DNA of 63,755 nucleotides, filler included, from Conidiobolus incongruus B7586 (lineage: Eukaryota): assembly GCA_000697335.1 (NCBI GenBank). It is 12 parts of 12 records of this genome, joined end to end, with 100 filler letters (N's around TTAATTAATTAA, not from the genome) between each part and the next. Parts side by side here need not be neighbours in the genome. Positions count along the whole stretch, not along the records: positions 47,782 to 56,849 come from JNEM01004121.1; 11 more parts are not named here. One strand, written 5' to 3'. Shown here piece after piece: positions 6,710 to 60,697 of the stretch (positions within the stretch are counted from its first letter, which is position 1; every line of letters begins with the position of its first letter). Made by a program: the position numbers and the translations under genes. The notes under the pieces were generated by a model. It was not told the DNA's origin, searched no databases, and was given only the letters and a program-made list of their open reading frames with translations.

Positions 6710-7918
6710 CTATTTCTTTTGCCCTTCGGATTTGTATAATTGACTAAAATCTTCATAAAATGATTTCAATAAATGATATCCTCTGCCATCACCTGATAAC
6801 GTCTTCTCTCTTCCATTCATAACATAAGCAAATGCAAACTGAGATTTGGGATCGAAAACAACAAGGCTGCCACCGTATCCAGCTCCCCCATACACTTCCA
6901 AGTTCAATTCAGGATAGACAAATTTAATTAAGCCACCTTGAGTGAGAATGGTATTAAACTCAGTTACTTCATCCCTCAACTCCAATGCATCATCCAGCAT
7001 CAACTTCCTAGTCGATGCAGAAATTGGTGACTCATCACTCATCATAAGTGACAATAGTTTAGCTAATGATGTTGCCGTAGTGTGTCCATTCGCGGAAGGC
7101 AACTCGATATTGTGAAAATCAGGAGAATTGGCAGCTGCAACGCTTGAATCAAAGAACAATGGCAAAATCATAGTTTTAAAAATGAGTGGTATTTCTGTTA
7201 AATATCCTGTCATTATATTTGCTGCTTCATTTATTGGAGATTGAGTGTCATTGGATTTCCAAACTAATGAAGGATTGTCATACCAAATCGCTCTTTTTTT
7301 TAGCACTTCTTGGTCTCTAATTCCATAATAAAATTCAATATCATATTTATCGCAGAATTCTTCTTTCAAAATTTGTCCAATAGAACGTCCCTTGGAATCT
7401 ACTCGAGATACGATTTCATTCAATATAAATCCACGTGTGACTGCGTGGTAGCATCTTACAGGCTTACCATCAAATACATGGCGCTGAAGCTCAATTGCTT
7501 TGCACAATTTCTGTCGATCGATTATTTCTTCGTGAGATAAAGCGGGTTCAAACCAAGGAACACCAGCTTGATGACGTAACACATCCTTGAGGGTGACCTT
7601 GTCTTTTCCGTTTTGGCCAAATTCAGGCCAGTATTTGGTAACGAGTGCATTATAGTCAAGCAATCCTTGGTCTACCAAATAACCAATAACTAATGTAGTA
7701 ACAGCCTTGGAACTTGAAAAAATTGCTTGTAGTGTATCCTTTTTGTATGGTATCTTATTCTCAAAATCTGAGTAACCTCCACTGATCTCCAAGATAATTT
7801 TACCTTTATGTATTACAGTTACAGAAGCTCCTACGTCGATTCTAGTCTCAAAATGAGATTTAAAAGTTTCGACTACTTTAGGGAAATTATCAGCTTGATA
7901 TAATTGAAGAGGAATCAT
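6710..7918 (-). CDS. Beta-lactamase-family serine hydrolase (class C/esterase-like), 402 aa, intronless
   Basis: SxxK motif (FSSSK), LLDY..V.KYWPEF, LRHQAG, YH, LPSANG and G-x-G-x-GG motifs typical of the beta-lactamase/transpeptidase-like family. Confidence 0.92.
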   Translation of the reverse strand: MIPLQLYQADNFPKVVETFKSHFETRIDVGASVTVIHKGKIILEISGGYSDFENKIPYKKDTLQAIFSSSKAVTTLVIGYLVDQGLLDYNALVTKYWPEFGQNGKDKVTLKDVLRHQAGVPWFEPALSHEEIIDRQKLCKAIELQRHVFDGKPVRCYHAVTRGFILNEIVSRVDSKGRSIGQILKEEFCDKYDIEFYYGIRDQEVLKKRAIWYDNPSLVWKSNDTQSPINEAANIMTGYLTEIPLIFKTMILPLFFDSSVAAANSPDFHNIELPSANGHTTATSLAKLLSLMMSDESPISASTRKLMLDDALELRDEVTEFNTILTQGGLIKFVYPELNLEVYGGAGYGGSLVVFDPKSQFAFAYVMNGREKTLSGDGRGYHLLKSFYEDFSQLYKSEGQKK

Positions 7919-21459: not shown

Positions 21460-23457
21460 TATATGATTCATAGTGCTGACTCTCTTTAAATTATTCCTTT
21501 GTTTTTGCTACTTGCACTATAGCCTTTAGTCTTTTTGACACTCAAATAAGGTAACTTTTCAACATTGCCAACCTGTTGTAATAGTGTGGAGTCTAACAAA
21601 AAATTTGTAGGAACATTCAAATCACTTTACATCATAACTCTCAATTTTGGAATCATTTGGGAATCCAATGGTGTAGGTAAGTTATAAGTTTTCGTTGTAA
21701 TATCATTAGATTTCACAATACCAAAACCGATGCACTCGCAAAGATCTGGAGGTGGATATGGGGCGTTGGTGGGTGTCACATACTTGGGGATTTCGTTAGA
21801 ATCACGGTCTGAGGTAGTGGTGGATATGAAAGAATCTGGGAATTTAAAGGTGTAGAGAGCTACTAAACTGAGGTTGAAAGCGTACAAAACTTGACTGAGG
21901 TCTAAAGCATCGTCTTGAAGTTGCCATAGCTCGAGTTGTTAGAATGGAATAAAGTGGATTGGCCAACTGAAGATTGGCGTAGAATCCCATTTGTTAAGGG
22001 TGGGGCGTTTGAGAGAGTAACTATATAGAATAAGGTCGCAATGATCGACAGGTTGAAACTTTTTGAATGTGTAACGATTAGTTTGAGGAAAATCAATAAG
22101 CTCCTGAAGCGTTGAGGATAGGAATAAACAACAACTATTTAGATTGGTATTCAAGGTGTCCAAATGTAAAGACAAATCACTCTTATCACCTTCCGGAATG
22201 GGATTCAAACTGTATTCCAACTGCTAAATTGAATCAATGGAGAGTTGGAATGACAATTGACTCGACTGATTGGTATCGAATGGAATTGAACTAGATGCGT
22301 AGGTTACAATAATTCCGTGAGTTGATCAACGTATCCATACCCATACGCCGGACCCAACCATGTGTGTTCACGATCAACAGAATTCTGTGACTATTGCCAC
22401 TCTGTTTCAATTCGTTCAGTGTCAAAAACTACTGGATCAAAGTCTGACACCCCTTGGTGAAGTATTCAGGATTCAATTTGACGTTGTGGTCCTCCAAGTA
22501 AAATCCCGCCAAAGGTTGTCTCAATTGGCTAAAGTCAGGCCCCAATAATGGTGTATCAATGAAATGTAAAGTAATATAACCACTAGGAACCAATTGAGTC
22601 TGACCAGGATCCGTATTTAGATAAGCAACTTTACTCCCACTACACAATAATTTATTTACCATATATCTAGCCAATGTACTTTTACCAAATCCCTTTGCCC
22701 CAACAATTTGAATAATTTGTAGTCTATCAATTTGAAAATCTTCAAAATATCATTAACATAAATTCATAATTAGATTAATCAAATTTACCATATAATTTTA
22801 AATTTTTATCAAATTCTTCAGCAGTAAATTGCCATTATCCAGGTAATTCAAAAAATAAAAAATTGGAATTGGAGTTATCAAATATAGAGATTTTATACAA
22901 GTACAAAACAGTTTTTGACCTAGATGGCTTTAAAAGTTTGATTAAATTTTTTATCGATTAATTATAATTTTTTTATTAAAATTATAATTTGAAACTTTTT
23001 TAAATTCTTCACTGTTCTTACAATTTAAAAAGTTCTCTAATCTCAACCTTAATTACTAACATTTCACTACAATATTCCTCTCTCTGCACTCTAAAACTTT
23101 AACAAATTTCAATGTTATCAAACTACTAGTCTTAGAACTCGATACTTCAAACATTGGCAACCTTTCAAACTTCTCGTGGGACTCTTAAGTACCGTTTATT
23201 TGATAACCGAGACAGTTTAATCCACCAAAGAGGACTGAGAGTTAGCTGTGGCCTAAAATTATAAAGTACTATAATGGAGTTAGTAATTGAGTTAATTAAA
23301 ATTATATGATTATTACTTCAAGAGGTTCAAGACCTACTAAGGCTATTGTGTTGCTGTTATTTTAGAGGATGTTAGAATTCTGTCGTTCGGAATTTGATAT
23401 TGTTGGAGTGAAATTATTTAGGGGAGCTATTTGTGTTGCACTGGTGTCTATATTCAT
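21460..23457 (-). pseudogene. GRC3: Polynucleotide 5'-hydroxyl kinase GRC3/NOL9 (Clp1 family) pseudogene
   Basis: Walker A IVGAKGFGKST (~22677-22710), YLNTDPGQ, IVNTHGWV, and C-terminal AFNLSLV and ECIGFGIV motifs. ATG at 23457; short introns ~23269-23316 and ~22740-22788; several in-frame stops (e.g. 22429) and frameshifts. Confidence 0.85.
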
Positions 23458-30801: not shown

Positions 30802-31746
30802 TTAATTTGAAAAAAGATATTGAAAAAATTTCTTCCATTTTGTTTTGAATTTCAAAAATGTCATACTAAAAGCATCTTTGATTTCAGGTTGAAATAAAAT
30901 AGTAACAATTGGATTCACTGATGCTGTAACATTTGCAAGGATATATACTACTGCTTCAACGAAAGGTGGTCTCTTATATCCATTTACAGCTTTCAATATC
31001 CATGTAGTATACGATAACATAAAACTTACATTGTAAATAAAGAATACCAATATTAGTTGGAGAACTAGTTTGATTTTCTCTTTACAAATAATATTTAACA
31101 TATTTTCGTCATCATTGATTTGTGCTTCTCGTTTCATTTCGTTTAATTGTTGATTGGCTTTCCATCCAACTGCAAAATAGCAAAAGGTAGTGATCCAGCA
31201 TAGAATGAATAGCATAAATGGGACAATATATGTTACAATAGTAGAAATGGTATTTGGTTTCAAAAATGGTATGCAAAATAAATAAGATGGACCTGGACTA
31301 GCGTCTTGGTTGATTGCACCATAAGTATAGATTATAATAGCAGGTGATGTTGCAATAAATAAAATTAGGAGCCAAAATTTCAATTTTTTCTCGATCTGAT
31401 GACAAAAAATCAAATATCTGAGTAAAGATAACATTGCTACAGAATTAATTTCAACTCTGATTATTAATTGATGTATAAAAGCATAAGCATAACATGGGGT
31501 TGTTCCGGCACTGAACCAGGTGTAGCCTAAACCTAATTTTGCTATTGAAACTATTAATAACTCGACACCATTAAAGAATTCAATAAAACAGAAAATTAAA
31601 ATTAGACGGATTTCAGTTGAGCTTAAAATAGAGTTTTTCCATATTATATATATTATTAGTATATTAGATATTAAAGTAAACAGAGCTTGTACTAACGATA
31701 TTGAATTGAAAGTGTAATTAATAAAATCTAAATTATTGATATCCAT
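30802..31746 (-). CDS. Seven-transmembrane GPCR-like receptor (class A-like), intronless
   Basis: Seven hydrophobic segments; TM1 Asn (SNILII), Cys before TM3 and in ECL2, LLRY at the DRY position, NPIVT in TM7 followed by a helix-8-like segment. Confidence 0.85.
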   Translation of the reverse strand: MDINNLDFINYTFNSISLVQALFTLISNILIIYIIWKNSILSSTEIRLILIFCFIEFFNGVELLIVSIAKLGLGYTWFSAGTTPCYAYAFIHQLIIRVEINSVAMLSLLRYLIFCHQIEKKLKFWLLILFIATSPAIIIYTYGAINQDASPGPSYLFCIPFLKPNTISTIVTYIVPFMLFILCWITTFCYFAVGWKANQQLNEMKREAQINDDENMLNIICKEKIKLVLQLILVFFIYNVSFMLSYTTWILKAVNGYKRPPFVEAVVYILANVTASVNPIVTILFQPEIKDAFSMTFLKFKTKWKKFFQYLFSN

Positions 31747-32681
31747 TGTTATTAAACATATTTTGTTGAAAAATAAAGTAGTCTTCTAAAGGAGTTGATC
31801 GATTTAATATATCCATGTTTCGTTTTAAAGTGAATATTTATAATAAATTTCAACCTATTTTATTAAGGTTTTTTTTGGTTCATTTGAAATATATTAGATA
31901 CTAAAAAAGCAGTTTAAACGATACATATCCAATAATTTTTTGTAAGAAATGTAATATCTTTGCACCATTAATAAATTGTTTTATAATTCAACCAATTGGT
32001 GAAGAAATTTATAAATGAATCATATACAATTTAGTAATTCAATTTTATTGAAATTTTAACACTTGCAATTAAATAGTTAAAATTTGCTTTATTTAGCCAC
32101 ATTTTGTGTTCTTCCAGTTTTAAATTAATATTCAAGATTTATAATTAGCAAATAAATTCATTTGAATAGTTTAAAATTGTACTTAGTCTACCTAGTAAAT
32201 TCTGCCCCACTTGAAAAATTCAAAAAATTTAAAACAAAATCCAATCAAATTGTGAATTTAAAGACCAAAAGTTTTAAATAATAAATTATAGTATATTAAC
32301 TTATCATTTATCAATTTATATTGTAAATATAAATAATACATTTTTTGTCCACTATATTATAATTCAAATTTAATATTTAATCTTGTAATATTTTGCAAAT
32401 CAATTTAATATTCATTATTTTTATTAAATAAATAAATATTTGATTATAAATTTAATAAATCAATATTATTTAATAATTATTATATTATTAAAATTTGAAA
32501 TTATATTATAAGTCAAAATTATAAAAATATTCTTTAATCTTTATAATATATAATATATAAATTTTATAATTAAAAACTATANNNNNNNNNNNNNNNNNNN
32601 NNNNNNNNNNNNNNNNNNNNNNNNNTTAATTAATTAANNNNNNNNNNNNNNNNNNNNNNNNNNNNNNNNNNNNNNNNNNNN

Positions 32682-33734
32682 TTATATTAATTTTTATTAA
32701 TTAATTTATAAATATATTCTTTATTTTATTTATTTATAATTTTAATATATTTAAGTTAAAGTTTAAATATATCTTTAATAATATTCTTAATAATTTTAAT
32801 AGATTAACTAAAATTATTAATTTTAATAATACTATAAGTTAATTTATTTTTTTTATAAAATTAATTAATATATAAATAAATTTTTTAGAAAGGGATTTAA
32901 ATATAATGATATTAATAAAAAAATCTAATATATTTATAAAATTATTATAATATATTTGTATTTACCCAACTGCTATATAAGTTTAATTATAAAACATTAA
33001 TAACAAAGGAACTCTTATTTTCTAACTATTAGTTTAATAAGCCCCTTTTCCTCTAGATTAATATAAATATCTTATCCACTTAAAATATTAACTTTAAGTA
33101 AAATATCTTTATTAATTATTAGTAAAACCTATTTATAATAAATATATTATTATTATTATTAAGAATAATCTTCCTTGAATAATACGGAAATAGTTCTTTA
33201 TTATATCTATATTTAAAATAATTAATAAATTTAACCTTAACCTTCTATCACTTGCTCTAAAATTATATATATTACTTTTTATTTTTTTATTTATATTAAC
33301 CTTCTTTTATATTATCCTAGGATTTTTAATTAATAATAAGATTAGATTCCTATATAAGATATCAACAGTTATAATGACATTTTATATATTTAATAAGTTA
33401 AAAAAACATTATTCTTGGCTTTCTAAATCTCAAATCAATTTATATTTATTTAGTCTTGATAAAAATACTATATAAATAATAACAAAAAAATAAAAAAAAT
33501 ATGGTTATATATTGAAAAATATATCCCTTTATTTTAAAAACCTGTAAATTTATAATTATTTCTTATTTAAATATTAAAGGTTAATATTTTTGATAATAGT
33601 TTACTTTATATATTTAAATATATTTATTTATTATCAAATAATATAGCTTAATTATATATTATAGTTTTAGATAGTCTAATATATAAAATTATTTTAGTTA
33701 TTAATTACAATATATATATTTTTGATTTTATAAC
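32682..33734 (-). mobile_element. Possible degenerate IS630/Tc1-like DNA transposon
   Basis: Carries the 24500-type repeat end at ~33450-33734. A faint relic LEEKGL (~33040-33058) resembles the xLxERGL motif of fungal IS630-like transposases. Confidence 0.35.
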
Positions 33735-33834
33735 NNNNNNNNNNNNNNNNNNNNNNNNNNNNNNNNNNNNNNNNNNNNTTAATTAATTAANNNNNNNNNN
33801 NNNNNNNNNNNNNNNNNNNNNNNNNNNNNNNNNN

Positions 33835-34620
33835 TATTTCTAAATTTAAATAAATTAAGTTATAAATAAAATTTAAAATAATAATAAATAAATTTAATAT
33901 AATTAGTTATTAGTTTTCTAATAGATTTTTATCAGATTTATTATTATTACTACATAAATATAATAGTAAAATTTTATTGATATAATATAAAAAAAACTTA
34001 ATATAAAGGTAATATAGCATAGAATATAATAATATAAAATAGGATATAGTGTGAATATATAAACAAAGTTTAATTAAGCTTTAAATTAAAATGAGTCACT
34101 AATATATTAAGATTTATATTAGGTAGTGTTAATATATGGTAATATTAATAGAATATAATTTTAATCTTAAAAATAATGAAAAAAAAAGAAATAGTAAGGA
34201 TTGAGAAAAAAAAGAAAAACTAAGTTTATTAAATAATTTAATACTATTTATATAATCAATTTAACTATATTAATATAAATTAACTATATTATTTATAATT
34301 AATTGAATTAATAAGAAATATATATCTGAAATTAAAAAACTACTTATTTAACAATAAAAGTATAAATAAATGATAAAATATATAATTAATTAAATTTTAT
34401 AGAAAGATATTTAAAAATTTAAAAAATTTCTTTTTTAATATTTCTTTAATAAATTTCTTAAATAAAACATATTTTTTAGATTTTTACAAATAAGTATAAT
34501 AATTAATATTATTTTTAATATTTCTAAAAATTCTTTAATTATTTCTTTACTAAGTTAATTTATATATTTTATATATAAATAAAACTTTTCATTATATATT
34601 TAAATTTACTAATATAATTA
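33835..34620 (-). mobile_element. Additional LTR copy plus 3' (chromodomain) end of a related gypsy element
   Basis: 33835-34410 resembles the LTR region ~39800-40282; 34410-34620 resembles 34990-35210. Confidence 0.75.
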
Positions 34621-34621
34621 A

Positions 34622-37600
34622 TATTATAAGTATAGTGGTAAATACCAAAATAATATAGAAAAAGACTTAATATAAGAGTAATGTAATATAGAATATAATA
34701 CTATAATATGGCTGTAGTATGCAAATATAAACAAAGTTTAATTAAGCTTCAAACTAGAATGAGTCAATGATATATTAAGAATTATATTAGGTAATATTAA
34801 TATATTATAAAATTAATAGAATATAGTGTTAATTTTAGAAATAGTGAAAAAAAAATAATAAGAATTGAGAGGAAAAAGAAAAACCTAGTTTATTAGATAA
34901 TTTAATATTATTTATATAATTAATTTAATTATAAAAATATAAATTAATGATATAATTTATAATTAATTAAATTATATAAAAGTATATATAAGGATTTAGA
35001 AAATTAATCTTTTAACATTTCCTTAGTAAATTTTTTAAAAAAAACTTGCTCTTTAGATTTTTATAAATAAGTATAATAAGTTGAGATATTCTTAATATTT
35101 TCTAAAGATTCTTATATAGTTGCTTTAATAAAATAACTTATTTACTTTATATAGAAATAAAGTTTATTCCTAAAAGATTTAAATTTAATTATATAATTAA
35201 TATAATATTCTTTTTCTATATTTTAATTAATAATTAAATTTAATTTTAAGATTTTGATCAATTAGGAAAAATATTAAAATCTTCAAAATAAGGTTTGATT
35301 TTAAAAATGTGAAAGGTAAAGTTGGACCTTAAAATTAAAAGTAATTCTAAAGTAATATTTTCAAAATTTGAATTAATAGATTAAATTTTATAAGGACTAT
35401 AATATAATAGCAAGTATTTTAAATTTAAGCTAGATTTAAGTAAAGTAAGTTTAAGGGTAAATTATTCTAAGTATATAAACATATTAGTTTTATATTTAAG
35501 AGGATTCTTAGATAACTTTAAATATTGTTATTCTATAATTGTTTAATTTTCTTCTAAGTTAAATTTAATAAAGGAATTAATATATTTGATATTAGATTAA
35601 AATTCAATAATATTTAAAAAAAAGTTAATTTAAAGTTTTAGGATAATTATTAAATTAAGATATTTATTATAATTAATGAAATAAAAGTATAAACCTGTTA
35701 ATTTATTGATAAAAATATTGAATAAATATTAAAGTTGGTAGATATAAGTACTTTAGTTTGACTGATTAATATTAATATAAGCTCTAATCATTTGATTTAA
35801 GGTTTTAACAGTTTTTTCAACAAGTTTATTAGTTTAATAATAATTAGCAATAAATATAGCTAGATTAATCTTAAAGGAAAAAGATAGTAACTTTTAAAAT
35901 TAAGAGTTAAATCATATATTTCTTTTAGATATAATAGTTTATAAAATTTTATGATAGGTAAAAATATTAGAGAATAATAGTTATATAATATCTTTAACTA
36001 TAGAACTTTTGAAACAAAAAATAAAATAAGCATATTTAAAGAATAAATCAATTACAATTAGTAAGTTATTATAACTAGTTATTAATTTAAGAATTTCTAT
36101 AAAATTAAGTTGGATTTATTATTAAGTTTTATTAGGGGTATATAGGAGAATAAGTTTACTATATTTTTGTTAGGTATTATATTTAATTTTTTAATATATA
36201 TCACAAGTATTAGTGTATTTCTAAACTAATTTAATTAAAAAAGGCTAGTAATATCTTATTTTAATTTTTTTAGAAGTTTTTAATTAGTTTTAATGTTTTT
36301 TAACAGATAAGTTATAATATTCATTAAATATTGCTTATTAAATTTTAGGAATATTAGAGATATATAAACAATTATTATAAAATAGTAAGTTATCAGTAGT
36401 TTTAAATATTTTTACATATTTTAATTAGTTTTTTAATTGTTTAGAGAGTTTTTTTAATTAAAATCAAGAAATTATTATTTAGTAGTGTTTTTTAAATTAG
36501 TTTAATAAATTCTTTATTTCTTTCATTAATAATTATTAAATTAATATCTTTTGGGATTTGTAATTAAAATAAAAATTTAGGTATCTAAGATTTTTTAACA
36601 AAGTATCTATAATATAATTTTATTATCTTAAGAGATATTAGATAAAAAAAATAAGCTTAAATAGTTTTAATCCATCTAATTTATTTTCTTAATAAATACT
36701 TTTAATTGTTTAAATAGATAAGTGATTTATAATTTGTAAGAATTAAAAAAAAGTTATAAAACAAAAAATATTAATGATTTTTGATTATTTCTATCAAAGT
36801 AAAGAGTTTTTATTTATAAACTAGGTATTTTAATTTAGCTGGCTTTATTTTTCTTAATTAGAATATTATAAACTTTAAGATAGTATTTATAAAATTAAAT
36901 CTAACTTATTCTCCCTTATTTATTATTTTATCTTATAATTAAAAGGTAGAATATAAATTAAATTCAAATTAAACTAACTATGTACTAATTACAAAAGAAT
37001 TAAAGTTAGTAAAAATAATATTAGGTAGTTTAATATCAAAAATAAATAAAATAAGAGCAATGGTAATATAAAATATTAAAGTATTTATATAAAAAACATA
37101 TAGTGGGGTTTATTCAAAAAAAAAGTTTTCTTTGAAAGATTAGTTAGAAAAGTTATAAATTAAACAAAAAAGTCAATGAAATTTTTAAAGTAATTTAATA
37201 ATTTAAGTATAAATAAGTTAATCTTTGTTTATAAATATAGTGAAAATCTTTTATATTATTAAATTTAGTTAGATTAATACTAATTCCTTAAGAAGATATA
37301 ATATAATTATAAAAGGAGATAGAAAAAGCATTAAAAATATATTTTGATAGTTTTAAAGATAATTTATATCCTTGAATAATTTATAAAACTTAATTAACAT
37401 ATTAAATATATTTTTCTTTAGTTTTGAAATAGATTAAGATATCATTAAAATAAGTAATAATAAAGCTATTAAAGATAAAGTTGAAAAGGGAATTGATAAA
37501 TTAAATAAAAGTTGTAGGGGTATTATATAATCTAATGTTTATAATAGTAAATTTATAATACTTTAATAAAATATTAAAAACAATTAAAAGAATAGAATTT

Positions 37601-40282
37601 TTTTCAACTTTAATGTTATAATAACTATTTCTAACATTTAACTTAATAAATATAATAGATTAAAATAGCTTATCTTTAATAACATATAAGTTTAATAATA
37701 GATTTTTATCTTTGATGGTTTTAAAGTTTAAAACACAATTATTGATATATAATCTTTAACCACCATCAGCTTTTTATATAAAGAAGATAAGAGATTTTTA
37801 TAATTAGGAAAAAGGTTTGATATATCTATTTTTAAGTAATTTTTAGATTTTTTCTTTTAAAGTTTGATATTGTTCAAAAGATAAATGATAAGTAAACTTT
37901 AAGTATAGTTATATACTTAAAAGAAGTTTAATTTTATGTTCAATATTATATTTAAAAGGAAGTCTACTTATAAGTTCAAAAACATTAGCAAATTAACTTA
38001 TTATATTATATAAAAAATAGTTATTAATTATAACTTCATTAAAATTAACAAATAAAGTATTAATAAATGAATAATAAATAAATATATATCTTTATAAATT
38101 ATTAAGGTTATTAATCATTTTTTACATTAGTTTTTATTAATAATAATAGAATTATTTGATATAATTATAAAGTTAATATTAAGTAAAATATTTAGTGGTT
38201 TTATAATAAGATAAATTTTTTAAGATTAATTTTATTAATTTCTTTTAGAATATAAAATAAATAAATTTATAATATTTAAAATAATACTTATAGATAAAAA
38301 ATTATAATATTCAAACTAATTTTAACCTAATATAAAACTATAGCCAATATTACCAATTAAGAATTTAATCTATTAAGAGTATTTAGAAATAATAATAAGT
38401 ATTTAGATATAATATTAAATGCTTATTCTATTAAATTATTATTATATTTAATTATTAAGTTGTTTTTTTAAGTAGGTAAAGGTAGTTTTATAATAATAAA
38501 AGAAGAAATAATATAATTAAAACAATTAAAGTTAATTAAAGCATTAATAAGTATATCTATAAAATATTTAATTAAAACAAATAATAAAGTGATAATTATA
38601 GGTAAATAATCATATAATAGATTAATTATTAAAATATTTCTAGTTTTTAATAGTTTAATTATTTAAATCTCTCTAATATATATAGTTTAATTTGTAGAAT
38701 CATTGGTTTATTAGAACTTTTATAGATTAAATTAGAATCTGCTAACTAATTATAAAAGAGGTAATTCTAAGATAATATTATTATTATTCAGGTTTGATTT
38801 ATAATTAGTAAATTGGGATTATTGAGAATTAAACAAATATTACCTTATAAGAAGATACTTATCAACTTTATAGTTAATTTATATCCTTTAATAATAGTAG
38901 CAACTTTTATTTGCTTTTAAATAAACTTTAATTTCTTTATTAAAAATTTTCTGATAAAGCTTTAAAACAGAAAAATTTATCATTTAAAATTAAAGTAAGT
39001 TAAAATAAATTTTAAAGAATTAATTCTTAAGATAGAAAAATTTAATTAGAAAGTAAAAGATATCATTAATCACAATTTTTATATTACAAATGTTAGAAAA
39101 AAAACATATTATCAAAATGTTCCTTGTTAATTAATTAGAATTTTATTTAAGGGTTCAGATATTATAATAGCTTATAGATTTATTCTTCTTCAATAATATT
39201 TAATATATTTATACATATCTCATTAAATTGCTCATTTAATTACTTTGAAGAAGTTTTTTATTTAAGTTAAGTAAGCTTTTCTTTTGCTAATTAAACTTAA
39301 TCTTTTAGGTAATATCTTTCTTTAAAAGTTTTTTCCAACTAATAAAAGGTTTATATTCTTATAGTCAATTATCCTCTTAAAGATTCTTTAGGATTAAGCT
39401 TATAATAAGTTAATTACTAAGTTTAAGTAAACTTTTCTAAAAAAGAAATAGTTAATTTAAAGATATTCTTTAAATCTTTATTAAGAATTAAATTAAGATT
39501 ATTTTTTTAATTTTTAAAATAGTTTTTAAACTTGTAAAGATTTTTAAAGCTATTATAAATAGTTAGTTTGTCTTTAAAAATATTAAAAAGATGGTTTAAT
39601 ATATTAACTATAGTAAAATAACCAGTTTATTAGATTTAAGCTTTTTCAGTTATGTTTTTCTTAACCAAAAGTTATTTAATATAAGCTTCTTAAAAAGCAA
39701 CAAGTTTTTAAAGATTAAAGTCTTAAATTCACTTAGTAATTAATCTATTATTATTATTAAAATAATATAAGAATTTTTTTTAATGGTATTATATTATATA
39801 ATATTAAATTAGAGTAAAATAAATTATAAATAGGATTTAAAATAGCAACAAATATATTTGATATAAGTAATTATTAATTTCTACTAGGTTTTTAATAGTT
39901 TTATTATTCCTATTATATAAGCATGGTAGTAAATAATAATAAAATATAAAAGAAAACTTAATAAAAGAGTAGTGTAACATAAAACATAATACTATAACAT
40001 AGCTATAGTATGTAAATATAAACAAAGTTTAATTAAGCTTCAAACTAGGATAAGTCACTGATATATTAAGATTGATATTAGGTAATACTAATATATTCTA
40101 ATATTGATAGAATATAGTTTTAATCTTAGAAATAATGAAAAAAATAAAAAATAATAAAAATTAAGAGAAAAAAAACCTAGTTTATTAAATAATTCAATAT
40201 TATTTACATAATTAATTTAGCTATAAAAGTATAAATTAATGATATAATATATAGTTAATTGAATTATATAAAAGTATATATA
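34622..40282 (-). mobile_element. Ty3/gypsy chromovirus-type LTR retrotransposon, near complete, hypermutated
   Basis: Direct LTRs ~34622-34990 and ~39800-40282. Minus-strand relics in gypsy order: RT (KADGG*RL ~37760; YFNDILIY = YxDD at 37441-37452), RNase H (ILTNYKSL = TDHxSL ~36720), integrase Zn finger (RYY*P, TCDIY*K ~36200-36260), integrase core (LIVIDLFFKYAYF ~36030; ISKRNI*F ~35920; TNKLVEKTVKTLNQMIRAY ~35780-35835), YSPYKI (GPY/F) ~35390, chromodomain (YIK*ISY...TI*ESLEN ~35100-35155). Confidence 0.9.
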
Positions 40283-41099
40283 AATTTAGATTAATTAATA
40301 AATATATTTCATAAATAATAAAGTTAGTAAATATAGATATCTTAATTTAACAGATTAATATTATTATAATCTTTAATTATTTATTCTTAGGTTTTAATAT
40401 TTTATTCAATAAGTTCATTAATTTTTTATAATAATTAGAAATAAATATAACTAAGTTGATCATAAAATAAATAGATAGTAACTTTTNNNNNNNNNNNNNN
40501 NNNNNNNNNNNNNNNNNNNNNNNNNNNNNNTTAATTAATTAANNNNNNNNNNNNNNNNNNNNNNNNNNNNNNNNNNNNNNNNNNNNTATTTTCTTTCCTT
40601 TTTTATATAAATTTAATAAAATATCAATATCTATAATATATATTAAAAATTAAAATATAATACCTAATTAAGATATATTTAAATTAATATTCTTATAATC
40701 CTTAAATAAAACTTAAAATTAAATCTAAATTAATTTGATAAAATATTCTTTAATTAATAATTATTGACTTTTTAAGTTAAGTTCTGGTTAAAAAGATTAT
40801 ACATATTATGAATCTTTGAGTTACCTTATATTTCCATAATTTATAATCAAAATAAAGTTAAATTATAATAACTTGAGGATGAATTAATTAGATAAGATAC
40901 TTGTGAGGAATAGTAATGAAATATATCTTTTATTTTTATTTTTAAAAATAATAAACAGATTTTTCCCTTTTTATTAAAGAAATATAAATCCTTTTGTAAT
41001 ATAAGTGTCAGATTCTTATAATTTCTCCAATAAGGTCAAAATGAATGAATCCTTAATAATAAAATAGTAAAATAGTGAAGTAGCTAATTAACTTCATTT

Positions 41100-41430
41100 T
41101 TAGCTAATAATTTGACAATAATTAATTATTATGTCTTATTAATTAATTTTATTACTTAATATATTTATTTTCATCTTATTTAAAAAAACTATAATTAAAA
41201 CAATTAGAAAATAATTATTATTATATTTTTAAATATATTTTTAGTTATTATAAAGTCCTTTAAATTAATATATTTAATAAAGATATATGATTTAACTTTT
41301 AATTTTAAAAACTATTATTTATTTTTTTGAAAATTAACCTAGCTATATCTAATATTAATTATCATTATATAAATAAGCTTGGTAAAAATATTATTAAAAT
41401 TTTAAAATAAATAATCAACAATATATTTAT
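41100..41430 (+). mobile_element. Gypsy integrase fragment, opposite orientation
   Basis: 41270-41420 matches the reverse complement of ~35780-35930 (gatatatgatttaacttttaattttaaaa...aacctagctatat). Confidence 0.7.
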
Positions 41431-41459
41431 ATTTACTAACTATATATATATATATATAA

Positions 41460-41656
41460 ATTAACTTGCAAAAGTGAGTCATAAAATCAAAAACACCTAT
41501 ATTTTTACTAATAACTTGATTAATATTTAATGAAATAAACCTAAATTAAATAATTAAAATCTATTATATTGATTAGTTATATATATCATTAAATGATGAT
41601 ATTTAGCTATTAATTGGCTAAAATATAAACCTTTAAATTTTACCTAAGGTGAGTTA
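41460..41656 (+). repeat. Copy of the 24500-type repeat next to a (TA)n tract
   Basis: gagtcataaaatcaaaaacacctata...acctaaggtgagtta resembles 24500-24700. Confidence 0.6.
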
Positions 41657-44600
41657 NNNNNNNNNNNNNNNNNNNNNNNNNNNNNNNNNNNNNNNNNNNN
41701 TTAATTAATTAANNNNNNNNNNNNNNNNNNNNNNNNNNNNNNNNNNNNNNNNNNNNATTTTTATAGGTTAGTATATATTAAAAACTCAAACTATAATTAA
41801 ATATAAAATATACACTTATATTTAAATATATATTATTATTTTGTAATTAAAGACAAAATATATTAATTTATAAATTTATTTAAAAATAAAAAAATCAGTG
41901 ATAATATTATATTTTAAGATATTATTAGCTTATAATGATGTTATTTATTTATATATGTTAGATTTTCATCTATTGAATTATATTTCTTATAATCGTGTTT
42001 TTTCACTATATTTTAAATTAATTATATATAGTTTTTTCTAGTACATTATTCTGATATTTTTGATATAGGAAAATTAATATGAAAATTTTAATTATTTTTA
42101 ATATCTATTAATAATAATATATTTCTGGTCAATTTAAAGATTTAATTTAAAATTTATTGTTAAGAAATATATTAGTTTAAAAATATTTTTAAAATTTGAA
42201 TTTTTTATAGTTATTTTATTATCATTTATTTTATAAATTTGATTGAGCTAATAATCAATAAATATAATCAATGTTATAAATATTATATTGGGTTATATGA
42301 TAGCGGAGTTTATATATAAACAAAAGTGGTAATATTTGAGTCTATCTTTTTATTCTATATTAATTCAACAATAGGCATTTTATATTTCAGAAATATTTTG
42401 TAAACTAGGAAGATTTCCTTAATACTAAGGTTTATAAATAAATATATAATCAAAAAATGACAGATAATTGAGTGAATATAGGACAAGTCAAAATTATTTA
42501 TATAGATGATAATAAAGTTAATAGTTGTCAATATTATCAATTAATCAAATATTTTTGATTAATAAATAGTAATTAAATTAAATTTTTTACTATAAAATTA
42601 GTATTCAAAGTAGTATTCTTTTATTAATATATTATCTTAATATCCATTAACTATATTCATATTTAAATTTATATCTATATATCAAAATAATTAAATAATA
42701 TTATAGGTCCAAAAATAAAACTCTTATTAGTTAATTTTATTTTTTCATTATTATAAGTTTTTAGTAAATTTTTATATTAGTTTAAATAATATATTTGAAT
42801 ATACAACTTATATTAGTTCGGAAAGGTATATAGATATATAGTTAATTTTAATTATAGATAATAATAAATATAATTATTTAATTTCATAATTAAATTNNNN
42901 NNNNNNNNNNNNNNNNNNNNNNNNNNNNNNNNNNNNNNNNTTAATTAATTAANNNNNNNNNNNNNNNNNNNNNNNNNNNNNNNNNNNNNNNNNNNNTAAA
43001 ATTATAATTATAATATAAAAATTAAAATTTATAAATAATCTAATTATTTAATTAAATTTATATTTTTTAAACTTTTTTACTAAATTTAATAATATATAAA
43101 TATTATCTGTAATTTAAAAATAAAATCTTAATAAAATATATATAGATGTTTTGTAATAAATTTTATCATTAATAATATTTTATATATTTATATTAACTAA
43201 TAGCATTATATATATATTCAATTCAAAATATTAAACATATTTTTTAATTTAACAAGATATGCTTAAAATTTGTATAAATTTAATAAAAAAAATTAATACA
43301 ACTTTAAAAAGAATTTAAAAATAATGTCAGTGATAAGATTAATAATTAATATAATTAAAATAACTCAATCTTATTTTACCCCAATAATAATTCCAATGTT
43401 TGATATTAATTGAATATTGCGCATTAGAATAATGGCAAATTATGTATATATTTCAAAATTTAATATATTATGATTCAATTATATATTGTGAGTATATTAA
43501 AATCACATTAGATTGATCTATAATTGAATCTAAATTAAAACTTATTTCACTTAAATACTACACTACATTAACCCTATATACCTATTGATATTTTAGCCAG
43601 AATTAATAAAATGGTTAATTCAAAAAATTAAAATCATCAATTTAAACACTTATTAGTATCAATTGATGTTATATCTTATTAAAATTTAGAAATAATAGAT
43701 TTATAAAGATAAAATTGATATAAATTCAAGGTAATAAGGATGCGGTTACAGTATTATCAATATCACTCAAAATATATAGCTATGAACTTAACGAATAAGT
43801 CTACTCGATATTAAAAAAATTTAACCATTTCAAAGGAGCTTCTTAATATTGATCTGTATTGGATAAAAACATTAATGACTCAAGTTTTGATCAAAGATAT
43901 ACGCATCAATTAACTCATTTGACACTACATAAAAAACTCGACAACTTGATTATCTCGATCAGATAATAAAATTTTCTTTGCTTCCTCAATTACCATCTTG
44001 GTTAAACATTTCAAGTTGGCGAATCCAAAATTTGTCGAGATATAGTTTGCATTGACATTAAGATTAATTGTAATAAATCATGATAAATTATAAGATATAT
44101 TTAATTAATAATAATAATTCCAATAAACATTCTTGATATTGATATAAAAAAATACAATTTTTAGACTAAAAATAAGCTAAAATCAAACAAACGTGCATAT
44201 ATTGAAATTATATTTTGATATACATTAAGTTTACTATGTAATTATAATTTTATTTCCAACCTTAACATATCATATGCATATAATTCTATTCAATAGTGAT
44301 GTATAAATCTCATTTTGGAAATCTCCGAATATTGAGTTTATAAATTTACAACCATTTAACTATTGTAGGTAGTATATTATTTAATATTATAAATGAGTTA
44401 ATTCATATCTTATTATGTAATATAAATAAATTAGACTAGTTTAATATCAATTAAAGTATGATTTTATTATAAATTTTTAGGAATATCTTTATTATATTGC
44501 TAATATTGTTCAAATGATTTAAATTAATCATAATCGATTTATAAATTATAGTAAAAGTTTTTTTTCAAAATCACCGAAATGTGAAATTGTTTGCATTGAA

Positions 44601-46199
44601 ATATGCCATTTACGAAATAACATTTTAAAATAAATAATAATTAACATGATTATTTTATTATAATTTTTGGTATCACCCTTTATAATTTCCTTTTATATCA
44701 CCTATTATACATCATTTTATTATATATTAAAAAAGCCGAATTAAAATCATATTTAACTTACATTTTGCATTTTATTAAATATAAAAGTGTAAATTATAAT
44801 TCTATATTAAAAACTAGGGATATTAATAATACTAATCCATATACTTTCATTTTATTTGTTCATTCCAAAAGATTCAGATTATTATCAAATTGCTAATGAA
44901 ATTGATGATATCTCACAGTTAATACATGATTATTTGATGATACTCTGTATCAAATCTCATTTCATTTCGATTTTTTAATTAAACTATTAATTATTAAGTA
45001 GGATAGTTTAATAAAATTCTATTTACAATTATGACTTTAAGATACAAGGTTAATAACATTAAAAATATATCATTAATATATATCTTTTGACTTAATATTA
45101 AATAATTAATGTGTGAAATATTAGGGCTATATCCAAGATGCTTATTTAAGTTTTTATGATATTATACTAATAACTATGATTTTTTTAGATTATGGCTAAA
45201 AGTAAATACTATTTCAATATATTTTTTGCCTTTTTTATCATAATATCCCAAATTTCTATGGTATTATAAATCAGGTTGGTAAATAAAGTCCACAAGATTA
45301 TTAGTATTGATGTTATAATAGTAATACTTAAATAATGCATATTATTTAAATTAATAATCATTTAATTTAAAAACTAAATTTTAAAATTATATATAATCTG
45401 ATATTAAATTTAGTTAATTAAATGAGTGAATTCACTAACTCCTAAGATATATAGCTGATATAAGAAATATAAATCAACCAAATTTTAAATAATTAAAATT
45501 GAAATCTTATTGAATTATTTTTACAAATTTGTAAATTAATTAATTAATTATCTAATTTTATATTAATTTAAAAAAAATACTTAAAAAAGTTCAAAAACTC
45601 AAAAAGGTTAATAAATTAACTTTAATTAGATTATATGAAATATAATTTCAATTTTTATTCTTTAAAATATAAAAATTTACAAAATTGATTTTAATAAATT
45701 CTAATAACTATATAAATGGAATTTTATTTAATATAGATAACTTTCTTAAAATTATATTAATTATATATTTTAATTCAATTTTANNNNNNNNNNNNNNNNN
45801 NNNNNNNNNNNNNNNNNNNNNNNNNNNTTAATTAATTAANNNNNNNNNNNNNNNNNNNNNNNNNNNNNNNNNNNNNNNNNNNNAAATTTTTTTTGTTATT
45901 GAAGCTATTCAAACATAATATATTTGGTATATTTTTAAAATTCCTAAATAAATTTAATAGTAACTATAATATAATTTATATTGAAATAAGGGTTTTTATT
46001 AATATTTAAAATTCTTATTTTTTTTAAATTTTAACTTTGAAGTATTATTATTAAATTAATTTAAAAATAAATATTATAATATATATAAATAAAATTATCA
46101 TATATTATATTTTGAAAAAATATTTCTCTTTAGTATTAGTTTTTATTAAACTTTATTAATAAAATACCTAATAGTGTTTTTTATATATTTATCATTTTC

Positions 46200-46720
46200 A
46201 AACTATTTAAAGTAAAAGAATAATTTACGTAAAAATTAACAACAATTAATTAGATAGTTATATTAAAATTAATAAAGCTATTATTATATAAAAGTATATT
46301 TTATTATATATTAATTTTATCTAATTGATATTAAATTATATTATCTCAGTTTTTTATTCTCCTGTAATATTTATTATATCCTTATATATAATAATATTAA
46401 AAATAAATTATCAAATTATATAATGGCTATATTAAAAAATAGTTATAAATAAGAATCAAATAAATTTCATTATATAAAAATAACTTATATAATGTTTAAA
46501 AGGTTTTATTAAATATTGAAATATAATGCTCAATCTGATCAAAATAATCCTTAAGAAAATATATATTTAATTATAATAAATAAAGTTATTTAACTTTGAA
46601 TAATATATTAAGGCTATAATTAAAATTATTTTCGAAAATCCAATAATATAAAGATATAATATAACTTATATGATATTTTGAACAACGCTAAAGAGTATAG
46701 TTAAATGGTGAAAAAAATAA
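46200..46720 (+). mobile_element. Degenerate Tc1-like transposase C-terminal relic
   Basis: NAQSDQNNP*ENIY at ~46525-46566 resembles PxQSPDLNPIENxW. Boundaries are approximate. Confidence 0.45.
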
Positions 46721-47781
46721 TTTTATTTATAATATTACCAAGGTTTCTAACATATAATATCCTTGTTAATATATTTGTTTGAAAATTTACTAATTATACC
46801 TTATTAATTGTTTTTTATATTATTTTATTGATTTCTCTAATTTAATTTTTGTATTATAAGATATTGTTCTTTTATTCCTATTATTAATAATTTATATCTA
46901 TTATTGGTTATCTTTGTTAATATATCCAAGTATTAAATTATTTATTTAGAAAATATATATTTTTATTTTATATTCTATAAATATTTATATTATATATTAT
47001 ATATTTGCATTATTTGGGCTGATTTTAATAAAAAGTTTTATTAATTTATTTGGATATTTATGGTTATTATTTTGAAGGTTTTATAACATTATTATCTGTT
47101 TTTTAAGTATATATATTAACCTATAAAAATAAATTATAGAATTAAAATTACTTATTTAGTAATCATTTAATTAAATTTGATTATATCGAACTAAATTATA
47201 AAATTAAAATATTTAATTTAATTTTATTAAATTGATTATTTGATATAGTATAAAAACTTATAGTTGAAATAAAATGAACTATAATTTTATAGTTTTTAAT
47301 TATAATAAGAAAACTAAAGCTTAATATATTTACCCTTTGTTTTTTTAACTTTAGTGAATTTTTGAAATATAAAGTCAATTAACTCTTATATTAAGTAAAA
47401 TTGACTTTATTTTAAGCTTTTTTATTATATCATCAAAATTCATTTAAATTTTTTATTTGGGAGGGGAAGATATAAATGAATTTTATATTTTATAATTATT
47501 TAGTTATATTCAAATCAAAAAATTTAAACAAAACTTTATTATTGTTAATTTGTTATTGGGTATTAAAGACTATATTTTAATAAAAAATAAATATATTAAA
47601 AATAATTTAATATTTATTAAATCAATAATATTGAAATATTTTGTTTAATTGGTTATTTAAGAATATTTTATTATATTTTAGNNNNNNNNNNNNNNNNNNN
47701 NNNNNNNNNNNNNNNNNNNNNNNNNTTAATTAATTAANNNNNNNNNNNNNNNNNNNNNNNNNNNNNNNNNNNNNNNNNNNN

Positions 47782-48099
47782 TTAAAAATTATATAATATT
47801 TTTCAATTAAAAATCATTAAAAAAGCTACCATATTTATTATATTGACTAGATTATAATTTATGTCATTATAATTGCTTTAAATATTTAAGGAATTAATTT
47901 ATAAACAAGGAAATTTTTAAAAAAATTTTATTAGTTTATAAATTAATAAATTTCAATCTAATAACAAAAATTTTTTTATATTAAAAATTTACCAAAAATA
48001 TGGTAAAAAGTTGTTAATAGTATGGAGTGTATTGATTTTATATTAAAATGTTTATTTATTTTAATCTCAAAAAATTCTTATTTAAAATTCAGAGTGATA
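47782..48099 (+). mobile_element. 3' end of a third mariner copy
   Basis: Matches ~20450-20824 (tagattataatttatgtcattataattgcttta; atatggtaaaaagttgttaatagt) and ends in a right-TIR-like sequence at ~48065-48099. Confidence 0.75.
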
Positions 48100-49307: not shown

Positions 49308-50844
49308 ATGATTCCAAGAGGAGTAAAAATTCTTCCTGATCCAGAGGTACTGCCAACTAACTTTTCGTTTTCTCCTCAATGTCAACTACCAATAAACAGT
49401 CATCTATTATTGTTTAGTATCTTGGCAAAATTCTCGTTGTTAGCGTTTCATATTATTTTATCATCAATTAGTTTATATATTGGAAGCTTCCTTTATTATT
49501 TATCTATAATATTTCCTAAGTTCGAGAATTGGAAATATTTTATGCAGCATGGATTGGGAGTAATGATAATTAGCATCTTACATATATTCAATCCTACATC
49601 TCTAGTTATCTCTAGAGGTGAAGGAGTCGAGAAGACTGAATTATTTGACTATTTCAAAAATCCCCCAGACTATTACCCCAAATTGAACATGGAAAAAAGA
49701 GCCATTGTGATAGGGAATCATCAAGTAAGAAAATAAGTTGATATTTATTGAATGTTATTAATTTGATATATCAATTAAAATTAGCTATACAATGATTGGA
49801 TGATATTTTGGTAATGATTTATATTTATTTTAATATCTGTATCTAATTGAGTAATTAGGGCAATTGCATACTTCAACCAATTGAATGAATACATAACAAT
49901 TAGTCTCAAAAAATCTTTGTCAAATATTCCATTATTTGGCTAGTAAGTGACATTAAAGTTTATAATTAATCCAAATTATTAACTCTAATATTAATAATTA
50001 TAATTAATATTATATTGATTATATAGTGTAAGTGAATTATACTTTCAGTATTTAAAAATTTTTAATAATTATAATAGGCATTCGAATATATGAAATGGGT
50101 TTTATTTGAAAGAAATTGGAAAAATGATCAAGATCATTTGAATGAAAGACTCACTCATTTGAATAGCTTAAAAGATCGTCCATGTTGGTTTATAATTTAT
50201 CCAGAGGGAACTACTTTATCAGAAGAGACAAGACTTAAATCTAAAGCCTATGCTGAAAAAATAGGCAAGGTATACTATTAACTATCAATTTTAGGAATTA
50301 ATTGCTGATATTCAAGATCTTTTAGCGTCCATTTCATCATTTGCTATTACCTAAATATATGGGTCTATATTTTAGCATTAACAAGCTTAAGGAAACTGTG
50401 GACTATGTTTACGACTTGACTATTGGTATACCTAATGTTCCTGTTTACACTTCACCTCAATGTACATTTACATTGAGTTCAATGTATATATCGGGTATTG
50501 CACCTCGTCAAGTGTTCATTCATCTTCGCAAGTTCAAAATCAGTGAAATACCTATTGGATCAGAAGAGGCATTTTCAAATTGGCTATATGATCGTTGGGA
50601 GGAAAAGGATGAATTATTGGACTATTTTTATCAACATAAACACTTTCCTCTAACCAATAATGATATCGATAATTGGACAAGTGATGGTGTTAATAGTGAG
50701 AATATTGAATTCCCAACTGTTTTGAGTTGTAGAGTTGATTTATTCGAACTTATCGTATTATGGTCGTGGAACATATTCTGCATGTATGGTATATATTATT
50801 TGATTTCAATATTATTCACACAATTTGAAAATTATTGGAATTAA
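49308..50844 (+). CDS. Lysophospholipid acyltransferase (LCLAT1/Cst26-like), paralog 1
   Basis: Inferred exons 49308-49724, 49785-49810, 49859-49942, 50027 (1 nt), 50078-50269, 50326-50844. Motifs NHQ-LYNDW (HxxxxD), LKKSL..IP..G, FERNW..D, YPEGT, LLLPK, YDLTIG and WLY.RW.EKD. Confidence 0.9.
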
Positions 50845-54789: not shown

Positions 54790-56276
54790 ATGGTTAAAGG
54801 AGAGCCTGAGATATTGCCAGATCCACGACCTTTGCCGGATCAATTGAGTTTTGATACTCAAAACATACTGAATTTTAGAGATTATTGGACCCTGATCAAA
54901 TTATTCGCGGGATCCGTATTACTGTATACACATATTGTGGCAAATACTATCCTGTTTTACTGGCTGACGTACTTGGACGCTTTGAAGCCCATCATTCCTC
55001 AAATTGAGCAGTTGCCGAGATTCTTGCTGGGTGCTTATGGTGTGCTGGTAGTCGCTTGCTACCAACTGTTCAATCCAACCAATTTGATACTGACGAGGGG
55101 TGATGGCGTCTCTCCCGAAGAGTTTCAGGATAATGACAAGTTGGGTAGAAGGTTACAATTTTGTGATAGATCTATTTTGGTTAGCAATCATCAGGTAATT
55201 ATTATTAACTTTTTATTAGTAATCTTTACGATTAATATATATGTTAGTTGTATACAGATTGGGGTCTCATTGGGTATTATTCATCAACATTACTTTACTA
55301 TAATATAAATCTTATTATAATTTAGGTGTTTAGCTTACTTCAATCAAAATTATCACAGTTATAAAATAGTATTAAAAAAATCTATTGAATCAATTCCAGT
55401 AATTGGAAGGTAAACCTTTTATAATTTAAAATTGATATCATATTAATTGAGATTTGAATTAATTAGGGTATATATTTAAATTAATTTTTAGGTAGAATTG
55501 ATCAATTTATTATTATATTTTTTAGACTATCAGATACTTTGGTCATATTTATATCAAAAGAAATTGGGAACAAGACAAATCAGTTCTGATTGACCAATTA
55601 AAAAAGATTAATAAGAAACCTAATGATGATTTGTGGTTTGTGATTTTCCCCGAAGGTACGACTTTAGAAGAGGATACTCGTATTAAATCGAGACAGTTCG
55701 CTGAGAGGATTAATAAGGTAATTTATTAAAATTTGATTACAAAGTGATATTAATGGTTATAATTATATATAGAAAGAGTTTCATCATGTATTATTGCCAA
55801 GATCTTTAGGACTTTACCACGTCTTAAGCAATACCAAACCTACAGTGGAATATTTATATGATTTGACAATTGGGTTGGAGAACCTGCCCAAGTATTCATC
55901 CCCATGCTATGTACACACTGTTAATTCGATGTTTGTTTCTGGCACAGGTCCCAAAAACATCCACATCCACGTACGCAAATTCAAAATTTCAGACATTCCA
56001 ATGAATAGCGAATCTGAATTCGGCAATTGGCTTTACTCTCGATGGGCAGAGAAAGACGAATTGCTGGAACACTTCTATAATTATGGTCAATTCCCCACAT
56101 CAAATACTGTTGAAAATATCTCAGGAGAAAGCGAACCTATAAAGGAATTCCCAAAGATCTTGAGTTGTAGTGTGAACCATATTTCTGAAATTGTCTACCT
56201 TTGGGGCTCTACATTCATATTTCATTTTGTAGCTGTCAAACTCTTATTTTGGTTGATATCATTTTTCCTCTTTTAA
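54790..56276 (+). CDS. Lysophospholipid acyltransferase (LCLAT1/Cst26-like), paralog 3
   Basis: Inferred exons 54790-55194, 55248-55273, 55326-55409, 55467 (1 nt), 55526-55717, 55773-56276. Internal exon sizes (26, 84, 1, 192 nt) equal those of paralog 1. Motifs NHQ-LYTDW, IKRNW..D, FPEGT, LLPR and YDLTIG. Confidence 0.9.
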
Positions 56277-59200: not shown

Positions 59201-59938
59201 CATGATGTTGCATATAATCACTAACTTAATTTTAATATTATTTAAGATAACAATTAAAGTGTTTATTTAAATTTTAAGTTATAATTTTTAAATTATTCTT
59301 TTCAGTATCAAATGTTAAATTAAATGATTTGATTAAATACTGTTATTTCGGATATATTTTATATAAATTTGGTTTGATTCAAATTGATAACTAGTAATTC
59401 TACGATATGAGAATATAATATAGTTTTTCATTATATATAATTAAGTATTCTACCTTATTTAAATTATAAATATACTTAATTGATTTAATTTATACTATTT
59501 TCAATAAAATTAGTTCAAATTATTACAAATTATGATAATTAATATAAAAAAATTAAATATAAATTAATATGAATTTTTAATTTTATAAAATTAAAAATGA
59601 CATTTTATTTGATATAAAAAAAGAGTGAAAATAACCAAATAACCTATAATAAATTAAAATAACTAATATATATATTTCAAATTATTTAAACAAAGCTTAA
59701 TATTTTAAGGCATAAATTGAAACATTAATTTATGATTACAACTGATTAATATGGAATTATTCAATAATCCCACAATAGAGAATATTTATTCAGCTGATAA
59801 TTTGAACCTTAAGCAACCTTCTCATTGGATTTGAATATAAATGTAAATAAACTCCTCCAAATCCCTGAACCCTCTTCATTTCCATTTCTTCCCCAACAGT
59901 TACCAGCCATTATAGAAATCAAATCACTTTTAATTAAC

Positions 59939-60697
59939 ATGTATGACAGCCTCAGTGGCCTACATATTGAGTTAAATAATCTAAAAGTCAGTATTGATAA
60001 ACTTGAGAACGAAGTCGATGAACTGTGCAACAGAATAAGGATACTGGAAGCTAAAGAGGATCATCAAACAATTACAGAGAGAGAAACGATTAAATTAGAT
60101 GATCTAAGAATAGATCGATCCTACTTAAGAAAGAGGATCTTTCAATTGAGAGAGGAAAAACTTTTAATACTCAAATTTATTTCTAGACAAGAGGAAAAAT
60201 CCTCAAAGCTCACCTCACCTATAACACAGCCACTTTATCCTCATCATAGAAGTGACAGCCAGGATCACGCTCCCATGACTTTCATCCCTTCAGCAGCCCC
60301 CAATTCACCTCCCTTCACCAACTCACACTGGGATACAAACGAGAGTCTAGCACTAATTGCAGAATATGACAAGCTTTTTCATGGGTTTAAAGGATGCACA
60401 CGGAATAAAGATCTTTGGGCAGAAATCTCAAATAATTTAGTAAATAAGGGAATTAGACGAGATTGGAAACAATGTAAAAATCGATGGAGATTCTTAACAG
60501 ATAAATACAGAGAAGACTCTAGACACCCTCACTCGATTCAAACTAAAGACAAGCACGTTTGTGAGTTTTTCGACCAGCTTCATGCAATGTACTCTAAATA
60601 TAACTCCTTTCCTTCCGCTAGGAGAATCAATAACCAGGCGAAGCCAGGGTCGGGGGTGAATCTGGGGATGAAACGGCCAAGTTCTTCCATGTCTTGA
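59939..60697 (+). CDS. Coiled-coil + Myb/SANT-like (trihelix) DNA-binding protein
   Basis: C-terminal W..NESLALI....LW.EIS..L...G..R.WKQCKNRW..L..KY...CEFFDQL is the Myb/SANT-like signature; N-terminal heptad coiled coil. The frame is open from 59812 and the first ATG is 59939, so the true start is uncertain. Confidence 0.8.
   Translation: MYDSLSGLHIELNNLKVSIDKLENEVDELCNRIRILEAKEDHQTITERETIKLDDLRIDRSYLRKRIFQLREEKLLILKFISRQEEKSSKLTSPITQPLYPHHRSDSQDHAPMTFIPSAAPNSPPFTNSHWDTNESLALIAEYDKLFHGFKGCTRNKDLWAEISNNLVNKGIRRDWKQCKNRWRFLTDKYREDSRHPHSIQTKDKHVCEFFDQLHAMYSKYNSFPSARRINNQAKPGSGVNLGMKRPSSSMS

Follow-up and report, generated by a model that had tools for sequence, protein, structure and literature searches.

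Exons of a single nucleotide have been described in both fungi and plants. The CYP621A P450 genes of Fusarium contain a 1-nt exon that was confirmed with SRA reads (Nelson and Syed 2026, PMC12940212), and a long-read annotation of Coprinopsis cinerea includes thirteen 1-nt exons (PMC12230235), which may include one in a gene of the family treated here. In plants, the 1-nt exon of Arabidopsis APC11 was demonstrated by cDNA and mutagenesis, with sequential removal of its two introns being proposed (Guo and Liu 2015, PMC4674806), and the 1-nt exon of VPS55 has a strong donor, GTRAGT (Yu et al. 2022, PMC8831610). The GPAT/AGPAT acyltransferases, the subject of the present analysis, carry HxxxxD, F..R and PEGT motifs, and motif II contributes to acceptor binding (PMC4280512). 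We found no microexon reported for this acyltransferase family in the literature covered, which excludes most subscription journals and patents.

We analyzed a stretch of 63,755 nt (the window) from Conidiobolus incongruus B7586, AT-rich eukaryotic DNA with gaps, in which a tandem array includes the acyltransferase paralogs P1 and P2. Our main interpretation, based on genomic sequence, is that T50027 of P1 represents a real, constitutive 1-nt exon, the third codon base before motif II, likely dating from the ancestor of Zoopagomycota and Mucoromycota (probability of about 0.92). The CYP621A and P1 cases are alike in several respects. Both are fungal, both have a frame-required base between AG and GT that annotation misses, the gap is about twice the usual intron, and the case is made from orthologs and an intronless length marker. 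However, the CYP621A base is the middle of an invariant Gly codon, is always G and occurs in one genus, whereas the acyltransferase base would occupy the third codon position, be T or G, span two phyla and be deduced from DNA. The features shared with APC11 and VPS55 are a constitutive single base, long conservation, a strong donor and loss by intron loss in some lineages, but here the gene is unrelated, the organisms are fungi and the exon is predicted from DNA. The Coprinopsis annotation shows that one-base exons recur in intron-rich fungi; Coprinopsis is a basidiomycete. Fungal stwintrons resemble the P1 gap in having two U2 introns within a short interval that are removed successively. In a stwintron, however, the inner intron interrupts a splice signal, leaving nothing in the mRNA, whereas the P1 gap would keep one coding base. 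The novelty of the present case is its apparent age, changing base and systematic mis-annotation, not a new kind of gene structure.

P1 consists of six exons (49308-50844), and all five introns have canonical GT-AG boundaries:

49308..49724, plus strand: P1 exon 1, from ATG to NHQ of acyltransferase motif I
49785..49810, plus strand: P1 exon 2, 26 nt, completes HxxxxD
49859..49942, plus strand: P1 exon 3, last letters GGC TA, phase-2 end (codon TA-)
49943..50026, plus strand: P1 intron A, 84 nt, GTAAGT...ATAG, 13% GC
50027..50027, plus strand: predicted one-base exon of P1, a T that completes the Tyr codon TAT
50028..50077, plus strand: P1 intron B, 50 nt, GTAAGT...ATAG, 14% GC
50078..50269, plus strand: P1 exon 5, phase-0 start, encodes motifs II (F..R) and III (YPEGT)
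50326..50844, plus strand: P1 exon 6, to TAA; Pfam Acyltransf_C at 57.3 bits (cut-off 26.5)

As read in the DNA, the P1 gap has its inner AG at 50025-26, followed by the T at 50027 and a GTAAGT that starts at 50028, and it closes with AG at 50076-77. The outer sites are canonical, and one base separates the inner AG acceptor from the GT donor. This agrees with the preliminary description, in which the T lay between an AG and a consensus GTAAGT with introns of 84 and 50 nt, the next exon started at 50078 after an AG, and skipping of the T gave a TAG stop. The end of exon 3 had likewise been given correctly as GGC TA, but position 49943 is the donor G, the first intron base, and the last exon base is 49942. 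With the T included, P1 is open and codes for 412 residues: FGYAFEYMKWVLFERNW. If it is left out, TAG follows at once. Retention of the whole 135-nt gap, a multiple of three, does not repair the frame, and a one-base shift of an outer splice site, whichever of the two is moved, brings in a G and makes TAG. The missing base therefore has to be a T or C from within the gap.

AG-N-GTAAGT occurs a single time on both strands of the window, at the P1 gap, and was seen in 7 of 20,000 dinucleotide shuffles of the P1 interval; any AG-N-GT was present in 6.0% of these shuffles. P1 and P2 have six undisputed introns, of 48-60 nt, so that the P1 gap of 135 nt is about two introns in length; the P2 gap measures 116 nt. 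No distant branch point could be picked out upstream of the microexon, because these introns hold too many candidates.

The array also contains P2 and a decayed copy, P3, which lies between P1 and P2 and is more closely related to P1:

52137..53613, plus strand: P3, decayed third paralog with stops, frameshifts and lost splice signals
54790..56276, plus strand: P2, 403 aa, six-exon layout like that of P1
55410..55466, plus strand: P2 intron A, 57 nt, GTAAAC...TTAG
55467..55467, plus strand: predicted one-base exon of P2, a G that completes the Arg codon AGG
55468..55525, plus strand: P2 intron B, 58 nt, GTATAT...TTAG

P2 is 42% identical to P1. Exon 3 of P2 ends in AG, and base 55467 falls, ungapped, into the alignment column of the P1 microexon. 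The P2 microexon donor, GTATAT, is weak, and YAG-N-GTA was found in 0.65% of shuffles of the P2 gap. Exon 2 has 26 nt in both paralogs (49785-49810 in P1, 55248-55273 in P2).

The matching gap of P3 (52763-52897) is also 135 nt long, lacks AG-N-GT and ends in AA, the acceptor being lost in this decayed copy. Foremost among the rival explanations, yet itself very unlikely, is that P1 has only recently become a pseudogene, or that its transcript mostly skips the exon and is degraded; the 135 nt would then be removed as one intron, the mRNA would carry a stop and the site would be a relic. Decayed gene copies do occur in the window, P3 of the same array among them. P1, however, is otherwise open over 412 residues, keeps HxxxxD and PEGT and has five canonical GT-AG introns, whereas P3 has lost its splice signals. 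Moreover, relic or not, the P1 site would once have been a working 1-nt exon.

The encoded proteins provide a length marker at this codon. P1 displays GPAT/AGPAT motifs I (HxxxxD), II (F..R) and III (PEGT) as HQLYND, FERNW and YPEGT. P2 has HQLYTD and FPEGT, with motif II diverged to YIKR. PF16076 (Acyltransf_C) matches both P1 (57.3 bits) and P2 (61.4 bits; cut-off 26.5). When single exons were searched, PF01553 matched P2 at 23.7 bits (cut-off 23) and a P1 fragment at 15.1 bits, under the cut-off. Both domains are likewise found in the named homologs. P1 and P2 are thus similar to the GPAT/AGPAT family with an Acyltransf_C domain in motifs and in PF16076 plus PF01553, but differ from these homologs in being tandem and fast-evolving, with about 39-44% identity to their closest relatives. 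They may be LCLAT1/Cst26-like acyltransferases (yeast Cst26/Psi1; LCLAT1 is the mammalian label). The homolog search with the last exon of P1 gave 1 match among 234 candidates, and no homolog match resembled the window's own protein (best 140 bits).

The LK..S...IP and R.W motifs lie 27 residues apart in all 92 anchored homologs (120 taken; 28 without the pattern) and in 97 of 99 anchored proteins of a second set (172 taken; 73 without the pattern, many of them fragments). Once the extra base is counted, P1 and P2 have the same spacing of 27. W is the split-codon residue in 74 of the 97 proteins with the 27-residue spacing. All seven site-spanning full-length Logan ORFs from early-diverging fungi (P0121, P0272, P0307, P0320, P0429, P0461 and P0473), which are probably transcripts, show the same spacing. 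Furthermore, the intronless metagenome locus L001 is contiguous across the codon, and bacterial PlsC (5KYM) is ungapped at the site in the profile alignment. Without the 1-nt exon base, P1 would keep neither its frame nor the length seen in intronless and transcript-derived homologs.

For both paralogs, every GT/GC donor and AG acceptor near the gap was combined into solutions with one or two introns, and the open ones were scored against a profile of 120 homologs. Among 62 open solutions for P1, the 1-nt exon ranked first (246.6 bits; runner-up 240.3), and none of the top 12 was a single-intron solution. If the outer sites are kept, no internal exon other than the 1-nt exon restores the frame of P1. 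The shortest single intron from the same donor (to 50166) costs about 30 residues, including motif II. Among 50 open solutions for P2, the 1-nt exon was again the best (246.8 bits). The fallback for P2, one intron to 55533, is open with three residues lost (237.0 bits), and a 16-nt exon restores the frame likewise (237.1 bits). In the preliminary description, the other AG/GT sites tried by hand gave stops or frameshifts. Other open solutions for P1 do exist, as the count of 62 shows, but they delete or replace conserved residues. It is also very improbable, and ranks just behind the pseudogene explanation, that one intron to a further downstream acceptor, or some other internal exon, yields a shorter or altered open protein. 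The many open solutions, and the P2 single intron that costs just three residues, speak for it; against it, every alternative scores below the 1-nt exon, the leading P1 solutions include no single intron, and the spacing is fixed across homologs, ungapped even in comparison with PlsC.

A metagenome scan yielded 33 loci, and we examined the best 10 of them; the other 23 were left out as weak matches (26-32% identity, E 5e-6 or worse). Two Mortierellaceae-like loci, L003 and L009, have a W codon split into TG, intron, G, intron. In L003 the one-base exon is at 526, between introns of 253 and 113 nt; in L009 it is at 2399, between introns of 282 and 122 nt. YAG-G-GTAAGT is present in both and appeared in 2 (L003) and 3 (L009) of 10,000 shuffles. 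There are 3 AG-N-GT sites in all in L003 and 2 in L009, with chance rates of 47% and 63% of shuffles, and the frame-restoring candidates number 11 and 12 in all. No intron is present at the site in L001, L002, L004, L007 and L010, again among the 10 loci examined. AT-rich L006 has a single 185-nt intron (577-761), four bases upstream of the intron A position in phase 1 of a Gly codon, which is either a different intron or a slid one. L008 begins within an intron with the same acceptor and L005 begins downstream, so that both leave the site uncovered. As to other introns, the one after NHQ is common to P1, P2, L003, L004 and L009, and the one after the 26-nt exon 2 is missing from L003 and L009.

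In four genes, a single base separates two GT-AG introns at the same codon, T in P1 and G in P2, L003 and L009; genomic DNA with this layout outside the window comes from two genes, L003 and L009. Most fungi have W (TG|G) as the split codon; P1 has Y (TA|T) and P2 has R (AG|G). GTAAGT is the microexon's own donor in three of the four genes and the upstream donor in one of the four. The closest named relatives of P1 and P2 are Entomophthora muscae and Neoconidiobolus thromboides. In a quick tree, whose deep branches are weak, P1 and P2 group with Neoconidiobolus and Entomophthora (SH-aLRT 98), which assigns the window to an Entomophthoromycotina-like fungus, and L003 and L009 fall inside Mortierellomycotina (SH-aLRT 100). 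The comparison with orthologs in other fungi proposed at the outset has thus turned up the layout at the same codon in L003 and L009, and the original reading of a genuine 1-nt exon is backed by frame, homolog spacing, paralog P2 and two distant fungal loci.

The recurrence of the layout bears on two further explanations. It is extremely unlikely that the missing base comes from a non-canonical splice site, a stwintron, RNA editing or a ribosomal frameshift. In P2, L003 and L009 a one-base slide yields the same G, and therefore their mRNA would be indistinguishable from that of a non-canonical slide. In P1, however, TAG results from either slide. A [D1,2] stwintron requires a G in front of the inner GT and a T behind the inner AG, whereas P1 has A before its first GT, the three genes with G have G after the inner AG, and full removal breaks the frame. 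None of slide, stwintron, editing or frameshift explains the conserved consensus donor inside the gap. Stop-codon reassignment, considered because of nearby in-frame stops, is not indicated either: open genes of the window end in TAA, TAG and TGA, and by eye the stops of the decayed beta-lactamase copy face different residues of the intact copy, which also contradicts reassignment. The least probable explanation of all is a one-base assembly error at the exon edge. The scaffold is indeed a gapped draft (968 N), but the one-base deficit and the internal site recur in P2 and in two unrelated metagenome contigs.

Public gene models break at this codon. Among NCBI proteins of early-diverging fungi, 25 of 69 show an insertion, deletion or break there, although odd models tend to cluster apart and the proteins are not independent of one another; ten of the 69 came from the query alignment (five broken), and without them the count is 20 of 59. 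At a control intron, the one after NHQ, 3 of 69 early-diverging models are broken. In Dikarya 7 of 121 were flagged, all of them pattern misses that proved normal on inspection, which leaves 0 of 121. Broken models were distributed as follows: Mortierellomycotina 10/12, Glomeromycotina 3/5, Endogonomycetes 3/3, Basidiobolus 2/3, Mucorales 6/26, Kickxellomycotina/Dimargaritales 1/15, Umbelopsis 0/2 and Entomophthorales 0/3. In eight Mucoromycota 90% clusters, 38 of 50 NCBI models are broken among the members listed (for Rhizophagus, 15 of 20 members were listed), halves of split genes being scored twice and an Absidia cluster, with 2 of 2 models normal, standing outside the count. Site-spanning Coemansia models are normal in 9 of 9 cases among the members listed (15 of 23).

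The shapes of these annotation errors fit two splice sites one base apart. Models with W-stop, T-stop or S-stop ends are consistent with read-through of the phase-2 donor, and those with W-V... insertions or a G-M restart with the phase-0 donor and acceptor. For Glomeromycotina, Mucorales and Basidiobolus, the broken protein models suggest the layout.

Taken together, we consider it likely that the one-base exon has been kept since the ancestor of non-flagellated land fungi, some 700 to 1,200 million years by the dates in PMC12592215. It would persist in most Mucoromycota and some Zoopagomycota orthologs, with its base drifting freely as a third codon position, and would explain the mis-annotation in Rhizophagus, Rhizopus, Mortierellaceae, Lichtheimia and Basidiobolus. 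The same source gives crown ages of 1,252-796 Ma for Zoopagomycota and 1,213-678 Ma for Mucoromycota; by these dates the split of the two would predate land plants. The match between the Entomophthoromycotina-like and Mortierellomycotina genes is most simply explained by shared descent, independent gains at two adjacent positions being formally conceivable. Both introns appear to have been lost in Dikarya and were probably lost in most Kickxellomycotina.

As for mechanism, introns A and B would be recognized singly by intron definition and removed one after the other, because two spliceosomes cannot share one base. The donor strengths (GTAAGT in three of four genes versus one of four) hint that intron B is perhaps spliced first. 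As a third codon position, the base would drift with its codon. Skipping in P1 leads to an immediate stop, and therefore selection would maintain efficient inclusion. Since skipping also removes motifs II-IV, strong selection on inclusion is expected. Skipping may also serve as regulation. The T of P1, which neither flank can supply, offers a natural tag for splicing order.

The occurrence of the predicted exon in both P2 and distant fungi, of which the preliminary description said nothing, is more interesting than a lone P1 exon. If confirmed, it would be among the oldest one-base exons described, with two introns that were neither lost nor merged in two fungal phyla. The genes would also provide a natural series (T and G; introns from 50 to 282 nt) for studying how the spliceosome handles such exons and in which order. 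On the practical side, many public gene models of mycorrhizal, oleaginous and mucoralean fungi appear to truncate or split a lipid-remodelling enzyme or to lack an internal part of it, and a single rule would repair these acyltransferase gene models.

The rest of the window contains several other genes. Beta-lactamase-family genes lie at 1683-2354 (plus strand), 4981-6150 (plus strand) and 6710-7918 (minus strand). The minus-strand copy alone is open (402 aa) and matches PF00144; the other two are a partial gene and a copy with several in-frame stops. A CLP1 P-loop kinase gene at 21490-22750 (minus strand), presumably Grc3/Nol9-like, contains frameshifts and in-frame stops and is either a decayed copy or an assembly problem. 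The region at about 32000-48000 has 11-16% GC, is gap-ridden and almost without ORFs, and contains diverged repeat copies, seen by eye near 34050, 34720 and 40020, for example; it possibly represents heavily mutated transposon remains. A 314-aa hydrophobic intronless ORF (30802-31746, minus strand) looks like a seven-helix receptor by eye and has no Pfam match at E 0.01. An OPT oligopeptide transporter of 694 aa without introns is encoded at 12962-15046 (minus strand), and an ORF at 59813-60697 (plus strand) combines a coiled-coil-like stretch with a Myb/SANT-like DNA-binding domain (PF13837).
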